Shown here: positions 2,920 to 3,079 of the stretch, one piece after another | Layout of the letters: each line of letters begins with the position of its first letter | How positions within the stretch are numbered: position 1 is the first letter of the stretch | DNA from: Desulfatiglandales bacterium | GTDB taxonomy: Bacteria > Desulfobacterota > DSM-4660 > Desulfatiglandales > Desulfatiglandaceae | Direction: 5' to 3' | Length of the DNA stretch: 64,000 nt | NCBI GenBank assembly: GCA_963662465.1 | Contig: OY759599.1 | Coordinates: forward strand, 3,648,001 to 3,712,000 | The notes under the pieces: generated by a model | Told to the model about the DNA's origin: nothing | The model's input: only the letters and a program-made list of their open reading frames with translations | Database searches by the model: none | Position numbers and translations under genes: made by a program

Positions 2920-2957
2920 AGCAGGGGGTATGAATCGACAATGAAGGAGTATGAACA

Positions 2958-3023
2958 ATGTATTGTAAACTCACGGGCTTTTTTTATTTTAGGTTTATGG
3001 GAACACCTCCGCCCGTGGATTGA
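2958..3023 (+). CDS. Attenuator leader peptide, Phe/Tyr-rich (MYCKLTGFFYFRFMGTPPPVD)
   Basis: SD AAGGAG at 2944-2949, 8 nt before ATG; control codons TTT TTT TAT TTT AGG TTT at 2979-2996; overlaps the alternative helices. Confidence 0.8.
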   Translation: MYCKLTGFFYFRFMGTPPPVD

Positions 3024-3043
3024 TGTTGATGTTGACAATTTTC

Positions 3044-3079
3044 AAGCCGTGGGCATTAAAAAGCCCACGGCTTTTTTTT
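3044..3079 (+). terminator. Intrinsic terminator (attenuator 3:4 hairpin)
   Basis: AAGCCGTGGGC-attaaaaa-GCCCACGGCTT perfect 11-bp stem running into a T8 tract, 66 nt before the downstream ATG. Confidence 0.9.

Follow-up and report, generated by a model that had tools for sequence, protein, structure and literature searches.

The window, as the 64,000-nucleotide stretch of DNA analysed here is called, contains a gene for an 854-residue protein in which a metallo-beta-lactamase-fold (MBL) hydrolase is fused to a GNAT part, and this two-part enzyme is very likely switched on by shortage of phenylalanine or tyrosine through the leader preceding its gene. The leader is, with high probability, a classical ribosome-dependent attenuator, in which shortage of Phe, and less so of Tyr, would stall the translating ribosome, permit formation of the antiterminator helix (2:3) and lead to transcription of the target gene. 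The anatomy of the attenuator, its folding switch, its conservation and its membership of a regulon were all established by computation.

All the elements of the leader lie on the forward strand. A Shine-Dalgarno sequence, AAGGAG (2944-2949), is located 8 nt before the ATG of a 21-codon open reading frame (2958-3023) with the control codons F8, F9, Y10, F11 and F13, all of which are NNU codons; the F/Y cluster is kept in homologues. These features, which an earlier note on this DNA had described, are all present in the sequence. Segment 1 (2971-2978), the 5' arm of the 1:2 helix, pairs with 3011-3018. Segment 2 (3011-3023) lies over the final codons of the leader, stop included, and can pair with segment 1 or with segment 3. 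Segment 3 (3042-3054) constitutes both the 3' arm of the antiterminator and the 5' arm of the terminator, and segment 4 with the T tract of the intrinsic terminator occupies 3063-3079. The 1:2 helix reported previously exists and is longer by one G-U pair than was stated; with its 8 bp it is weak when taken alone (z -1.0). The antiterminator was described correctly, with 12 of 13 positions paired, including 2 G-U pairs (-17.0 kcal/mol, z -2.2), as was the 3:4 terminator, an 11-bp hairpin at 3044-3073 with 8 T at 3072-3079 (-22.5 kcal/mol, z -5.4).

A probable sigma-70 promoter, consisting of TTGACA, a 16-nt spacer and TATAGA, was read from the sequence at 2892-2919 on the same strand. Its assignment is favored by the perfect -35 element (2892-2897), which recurs at the matching position in 11/11 close homologues inspected, and weakened by a -10 element agreeing at only 4/6 positions and by a consensus promoter scan in which the candidate was not called. 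An Rfam scan of positions 2400-3300 of the window returned no family at its gathering score, the Phe leader (pheL) included, and a scan of six related loci returned none over threshold apart from tRNAs. RNA contigs from one study (two runs with a small share) cover parts of the target gene and none falls on 2908-3115; contigs of this kind cannot show transcript ends. Upstream of the promoter, at 2608-2681 (+), a weak match to the xanthine riboswitch was observed (18 bits for a cut-off of 36) next to a xanthine permease gene on the opposite strand; this match was not found in the closest homologue locus, L001.

The switch was examined in computed folds of the nascent RNA in which a ribosome footprint was moved along the leader codons. 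With segment 1 blocked by a ribosome whose A site is at codons 8-13 (F8-F13), the 2:3 helix forms at -17 to -19 kcal/mol, and it is lost when the ribosome is located at P17 through the stop. The full-length RNA always prefers the 3:4 fold, so the switch should be kinetic, as known attenuators are. From these results we infer the following operation in cells. When the Phe and Tyr tRNAs are charged, the ribosome would reach the stop and cover segment 2, and the 3:4 hairpin would end the transcript near 3079; an untranslated leader would form 1:2, which also allows termination. A ribosome stalled at codons 8-13 would cover segment 1, the 2:3 helix would form and RNA polymerase would read into the 854-residue gene. 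What the sensor monitors would be how far tRNA-Phe is charged, and a single conserved codon would extend this to tRNA-Tyr. The starvation-on logic put forward in the earlier note is supported by the folding, by conservation and by paralogous leaders on aromatic biosynthesis operons, while the proposal of a Phe sensor has to be broadened: Phe appears to be the main signal, but a conserved Tyr codon is present here too and the family as a whole uses Phe and Tyr.

Relatives of the 854-residue gene were retrieved at 48 loci in records of Desulfatiglandales, Desulfobacteraceae, Desulfomonile and Syntrophales; MBL and GNAT are fused in some of them and encoded apart in others. Among 401 genomes sampled from the phylum, 34 have the GNAT part and 16 the MBL part. 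Upstream leaders were defined by at least 4 F/Y in 7 codons together with a terminator, and 94 loci were surveyed, from which 9 with too little upstream DNA and 7 duplicates were removed, leaving 78 to be scored. The conserved Phe-rich upstream frame anticipated by the earlier note was recovered in F/Y form: leader and terminator precede 33/37 GNAT-only, 12/17 fused or adjacent and 10/24 MBL-only loci, counts that are not independent because the homologues are related. The leader is lacking at 14/24 MBL-only and 5/17 fused or adjacent loci, one of the five (L006) having a weakened 3-codon leader. As a background, only 3/600 random long ORFs of this genome carry such a leader, one of them being the real aroG leader. 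In the entire 8.16-Mb genome, 647 terminator-like hairpins yield 101 uORF-terminator pairs, 3 of which have at least 4 F/Y in 7 codons. The 43 distinct leaders contain 164 F, 115 Y and 3 W among 919 codons.

The footprint switch was reproduced in 31/46 leaders (near-identical rows included) and failed in the other 15, many of which belong to a long-spacer class (L067-L081) where 82-91 nt separate the stop from the T tract, an extra terminator-like hairpin is present and the simple test often fails. Of the short-spacer leaders, 18/31 outperform shuffled sequences in folding at p<=0.05. At least three dissimilar terminator families can be told apart; each is accompanied by a segment 2 of its own that is complementary to it, and from one terminator class to another entire stems are different. 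Covariation, which the earlier note had expected in the stems, was found mainly in one of them. In 14 class-I leaders, 85.7% of the cells of 1:2 are paired and 6 are compensatory, a pairing and covariation score reached by 0/500 shuffles. The 2:3 helix of the same leaders displays no compensatory change and 70/500 shuffles are as well paired; 3:4 displays one compensatory cell.

Several individual loci depart from the common arrangement. Three GNAT-family genes (L066, L069 and L007) have kept the terminator, or half of it, and lost the leader ORF; the first two also have a tRNA-like sequence immediately upstream. Tandem Tyr-rich attenuators precede one MBL gene each at L132 (G495:C68:21843-22168) and L168 (G518:C151:9096-9417). 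At L053/L201 (G126:C21), MBL and GNAT are encoded as two overlapping ORFs behind a single Phe-rich leader, plausibly a state preceding the fusion.

The leader is not confined to the target gene. In this genome, a paralogous leader is located before aroK-aroC-pheA and downstream aro genes, a leader with F, Y and W codons before aroG-aroB-aminotransferase-tyrA, and a Trp-codon leader before a second DAHP synthase. A covariance model built from the class-I leaders was run on 151 genomes of the order and matched in 107. The best 90 matches comprise 50 before aroK, 5 before aroC, 4 before ADH-synthase-like aldolases and 2 before DAHP synthase (61 together), 17 before the MBL family (8 fused genes and 9 MBL-only), 3 before a 2-hydroxyacyl-CoA dehydratase subunit, 2 before an aminotransferase and 1 before a CoA ligase, with 6 unassigned. 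Codon content varies with the target. Trp codons occur in 50/60 shikimate leaders versus 1/30 GNAT-only and 4/17 fused leaders, which places the target in the Phe/Tyr branch. The GNAT-only leaders (n=30) contain F106 and Y91 and the fused leaders (n=17) F71 and Y28. Leaders of MBL clade A are Phe-rich (F39, Y3; n=6), those of clade B are Tyr-rich (F15, Y41; n=9), and those of the dehydratase contain F1 and Y17 (n=3). A quick tree built from 68 MBL domains splits clade B, together with four rows lying further away, from the rest with a support of 100, and the domain of the window falls among the Phe-leader group. Two genomes, G201 and G514, each possess one Phe-leader and one Tyr-leader MBL paralogue. 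Since leader codons and MBL paralogues split together, the signal is probably the amino acid itself, for which this parallel with target and paralogue would be the strongest argument; the hydrolases would likewise act on phenyl compounds behind Phe leaders and on 4-hydroxyphenyl compounds behind Tyr leaders. On the evidence of sequence, the target gene belongs to a Desulfobacterota Phe/Tyr-shortage regulon that also holds shikimate operons and is apparently undescribed.

Two neighboring features were recorded in this survey. An IS200-type-transposase-like ORF, recognized by eye, lies directly upstream of an aroK leader (L049:9906-10415, -). A 13-codon F/Y-containing ORF with a terminator precedes a Na/Pi-cotransporter-like gene (G000:C1:5136620, -; L050 ~9500-9620), some 3 kb beyond the dehydratase operon, and may be due to chance.

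Other readings of the leader can be weighed against these data. That it senses UUU/UAU decoding, i.e. tRNA modification (ms2i6A37, queuosine), instead of amino-acid supply would account for the NNU bias of the leaders (TTT 136/TTC 28 and TAT 85/TAC 30, versus 60:40 and 59:41 in the genome). It is nevertheless very unlikely, as shikimate and prephenate genes are found under paralogous leaders, other UNN codons are without an F/Y-like enrichment and W is nearly absent, and Phe-only and Tyr-rich leaders divide by paralogue. Phe codons also come easily from T-rich tracts, and the element could in principle be a constitutive terminator behind a chance T-rich ORF. The frame test addresses this point: at T-rich anchors chosen regardless of frame and without selecting on F/Y content, start and stop are found in the F-Y frame at 43/47 and in the other frames at 3 and 2. 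With the 3/600 background, conservation has largely refuted a chance ORF already. The PPP motif of the window leader had been proposed as a possible EF-P input, and an EF-P sensor acting through it was considered together with the chance ORF. The EF-P input was discarded: PPP occurs in 2/46 leaders, and stalling at P17-P19 would leave segment 2 under the ribosome and favor termination over read-through. Taken as a pair, these last two explanations are hardly credible, and attenuation by Phe and Tyr supply is retained in what follows.

The leader may then be compared to the pheL (pheA), pheM (pheST) and trpL systems of enterobacteria, with which it shares a short leader whose control codons are clustered, 1:2, 2:3 and 3:4 helices that exclude one another, an intrinsic terminator and, as a prediction here, read-through on starvation. 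The likeness to the E. coli pheA, pheST and trp attenuators noted earlier is borne out by the features that can be computed, namely the leader ORF, the terminator and the exclusive antiterminator. Unlike these systems, the window leader matches no Rfam family, even that of the Phe leader, Phe and Tyr codons are mixed and tuned to each target, and the targets extend beyond biosynthetic and synthetase genes to acyl-CoA enzymes and to the MBL and GNAT families, which are uncharacterised. For Desulfobacterium autotrophicum, PMC3082878 mentions that pheA may be preceded by a pheL, and attenuation of aromatic biosynthesis would therefore not be wholly new in the phylum.

The target, described earlier as no recognizable Phe biosynthesis or tRNA-synthetase gene, encodes a PqsE-like hydrolase joined to a GNAT domain. 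The hydrolase part (3146-4060, +; Pfam PF00753) has the PqsE thioesterase as its closest solved structure (E 8e-20 over residues 14-302), the motifs HxHxDH at residues 68-73, H165, D184 and H226, and the MBL fold, the active site and the C-terminal helical lid of PqsE-like proteins. A B3 metallo-beta-lactamase resistance enzyme was rejected (58.7 bits for an NCBIfam cut-off of 240). PqsE of Pseudomonas aeruginosa is the best structure match over the whole MBL domain and shares its HxHxDH site; according to PMC12077149, it uses this site to hydrolyse 2-aminobenzoylacetyl-CoA, and this aryl-C3 acyl-CoA substrate is counted as a further likeness. The target differs as a distant relative that has no quinolone operon nearby, is fused to a GNAT and is placed under an amino-acid attenuator.

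The second part (4160-5710, +) comprises a GNAT domain, a helical middle and a C-terminal domain; proteins of the GNAT family are about 530 residues long. Its 516 residues were modelled with an 82-row alignment to a pLDDT of 82.8, compared to 36 for the single-sequence model. In this predicted model, residues 48-197 match the GNAT fold (Z 11.0, rmsd 3.4, 130 aligned). The CoA-binding R-x-x-G-x-G loop is intact (R105/G108/G110, 96% conserved), with a GNAT Pfam score below cut-off (17.7 vs 20.7 bits). Foldseek gave no match to the model at E<=0.001 and GNATs alone at a second look, and a profile search of 1.84 billion proteins gave only generic GNAT stretches beyond the family itself. A GNAT family like malonyl-CoA decarboxylase was rejected (probability 0.3%). 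The C-terminal tail (residues 295-516), taken from the whole-part model, matches the WaaP kinase (Z 7.2, rmsd 5.0, 156 aligned), shows weak Atlas leads to kinase-like families (0.86-0.88) and may be a degenerate kinase-like fold, the motif positions assigned by eye (R374; W492-D493, N497) appearing degenerate, with the canonical Lys and HxD not kept. The order of a GNAT followed by a possibly kinase-like domain would be shared with the bifunctional AAC/APH and GNAT-Kdo proteins, which are the next Atlas neighbors (0.75-0.83). The target differs from these proteins in canonical kinase Lys and HxD positions that appear not to be kept, and its fold match is middling.

The role of the protein can be approached through its genetic context. 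HGD-D dehydratase subunits, the ATPase activator and hydratases are repeatedly linked to MBL genes, and the HGD-D orthologue, found in 80/401 genomes of the phylum, is present in 12/16 MBL genomes (3.2 expected; kin are not independent). Linked loci share with the FldABC/FldI/FldH and HadBC/HadI systems an HGD-D subunit accompanied by its ATPase activator, genes resembling 2-hydroxyacid dehydrogenases, and CoA activation; the phenyllactate pathway FldABC/FldI/FldH of Clostridium sporogenes is summarised in PMC13416013. In contrast to that catabolic, reductive pathway, some copies here are under starvation-on leaders and linked to thioesterases, and the HadB equivalog cut-off is missed (215 vs 750 bits). 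With modest confidence, we favor an MBL domain that hydrolyses an aryl acyl-CoA, the carbon being kept for or returned to phenylpyruvate and Phe, and a GNAT part that binds acyl-CoA to the same end.

Two versions share this hydrolysis step. In one, which is tenable at best as a tentative proposal, the 2-hydroxyacyl-CoA dehydratase, activated by ATP, would run in reverse to hydrate an aryl-acryloyl-CoA (cinnamoyl- or 4-coumaroyl-CoA), the PqsE-like thioesterase would pull the reaction by freeing the aryl-lactate; Phe or Tyr would finally be reached through a 2-hydroxyacid dehydrogenase and an aminotransferase. Such an anabolic route would suit the Tyr-rich leaders located directly before HGD-D and activator (L134, L164, L166), MBL-activator-HGD-D (L177), MBL-HGD-D-HGD-D-activator (L183), MBL with a 3-hydroxyacyl-CoA dehydrogenase/hydratase fusion (L176, L179) and a CoA ligase (L152), as well as the F/Y leaders before an aminotransferase (L148, L170). 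Leaderless MBL genes adjoin HGD-D and activator too, the HGD-D orthologue of this genome (78%) shares an operon with a FAD/Fe-S 2-hydroxyacid dehydrogenase-like gene, a ligase and a thiolase, HadB is the closest solved structure to HGD-D (E 1e-50), and a catabolic dehydratase induced by starvation would make little sense. However, HGD-D lies downstream of only 3/90 leaders read, a leader is found within 1.5 kb at only 1/30 HGD-D loci of the phylum, no leader precedes the HGD-D operon in this genome, mostly one HGD-D subunit is present instead of an FldB/FldC pair, and hydration to the 2-hydroxy compound is energetically uphill. Six genomes with Tyr-rich MBL leaders also have tyrA-family genes, so the route would be an accessory one; replacement of tyrA by the dehydratase module is not supported on the same ground, PF02153 being over cut-off in G171, G450, G477, G514, G486 and G418. 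It is below cut-off in G201 and without a listed match in G522, G495, G518 and G530 (incomplete genomes). In the other version, possible though unlikely, starvation would bring a brake on catabolism: the thioesterase would drain Phe/Tyr breakdown of its aryl acyl-CoA intermediates, and the GNAT would acylate and silence the aryl-CoA ligase, in the way Pat enzymes acylate and silence CoA ligases. The PqsE-like hydrolase and the intact CoA-binding loop fit this scheme, as do GNAT-family genes that are mostly monocistronic with varying neighbors, as is often the case for regulators, and an HGD-D orthologue in 23/34 GNAT-family genomes (6.8 expected; kin are not independent). It leaves unexplained the starvation-on leaders of dehydratase, ligase and aminotransferase genes in some genomes, and protein lysine acetyltransferases are not singled out by any fold match. 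Scavenging or quality control appears improbable. The hydrolase would free Phe or Tyr from conjugates of amide or ester type, namely N-acyl amino acids and aminoacyl-tRNA that is acylated or mischarged, with a GNAT handling aminoacyl-tRNA or free amino acids; MBL hydrolases do have a broad amidase and esterase chemistry, Phe- and Tyr-specific paralogues would be compatible, and the GNAT fold matches include two users of aminoacyl-tRNA, FemA (Z 9.1) and MprF (Z 8.3). These two matches are no higher than those of ordinary GNATs, and the neighbors of the MBL genes are acyl-CoA enzymes.

Further loci of the same genome were recorded. The operon at G000:C1:5139737-5149161 (-; L192) encodes malonyl-CoA decarboxylase, a FAD/Fe-S 2-hydroxyacid dehydrogenase-like protein, a single HGD-D subunit, the activator, a CoA ligase and a thiolase. 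At G000:C1:6031824-6035893 (+), a CoA ligase is followed by genes resembling iorA-iorB by eye, a layout of aryl-acetate salvage, and a 71% orthologue of this ligase is under a Tyr-rich leader in G530. A repeated element made of a Ser-Leu repeat ORF and a GC hairpin occurs in at least three places (G000:C1:8045108, 3981675 and 3251688-3251981).

In the literature searched on the element, its targets and the pathway, no description was found of F/Y leaders preceding genes of these MBL or GNAT families, and one earlier survey may list some of the biosynthetic leaders; the available main text of PMC4833913 and PMC2965389 has nothing on these genes, and their leader-gene tables may bear on novelty. 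The type of attenuator is a textbook one, and its control codons label gene function naturally. Two families that are uncharacterised, the GNAT protein of about 530 residues and the PqsE-like hydrolase, can be assigned by them to Phe/Tyr supply, and they tell Phe-specific from Tyr-specific hydrolase paralogues, which leads to direct substrate predictions. More speculatively, the leaders could mark an undescribed pathway by which anaerobic Desulfobacterota that degrade aromatics build Phe and Tyr: cinnamoyl- or coumaroyl-CoA, derived from lignin acids or from benzoyl-CoA by reverse beta-oxidation, would be hydrated at C2 by a reversed radical dehydratase, pulled by Phe- or Tyr-specific PqsE-like thioesterases, oxidised and aminated, and the GNAT/kinase-like protein would be a new starvation-induced partner. 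If the salvage is true, sulfate reducers and syntrophs that consume aromatics would build their aromatic amino acids from growth substrates via a reversed fermentation pathway, and the wider set of genes with leaders may amount to a means, so far undescribed, by which anaerobic Desulfobacterota recover Phe and Tyr.
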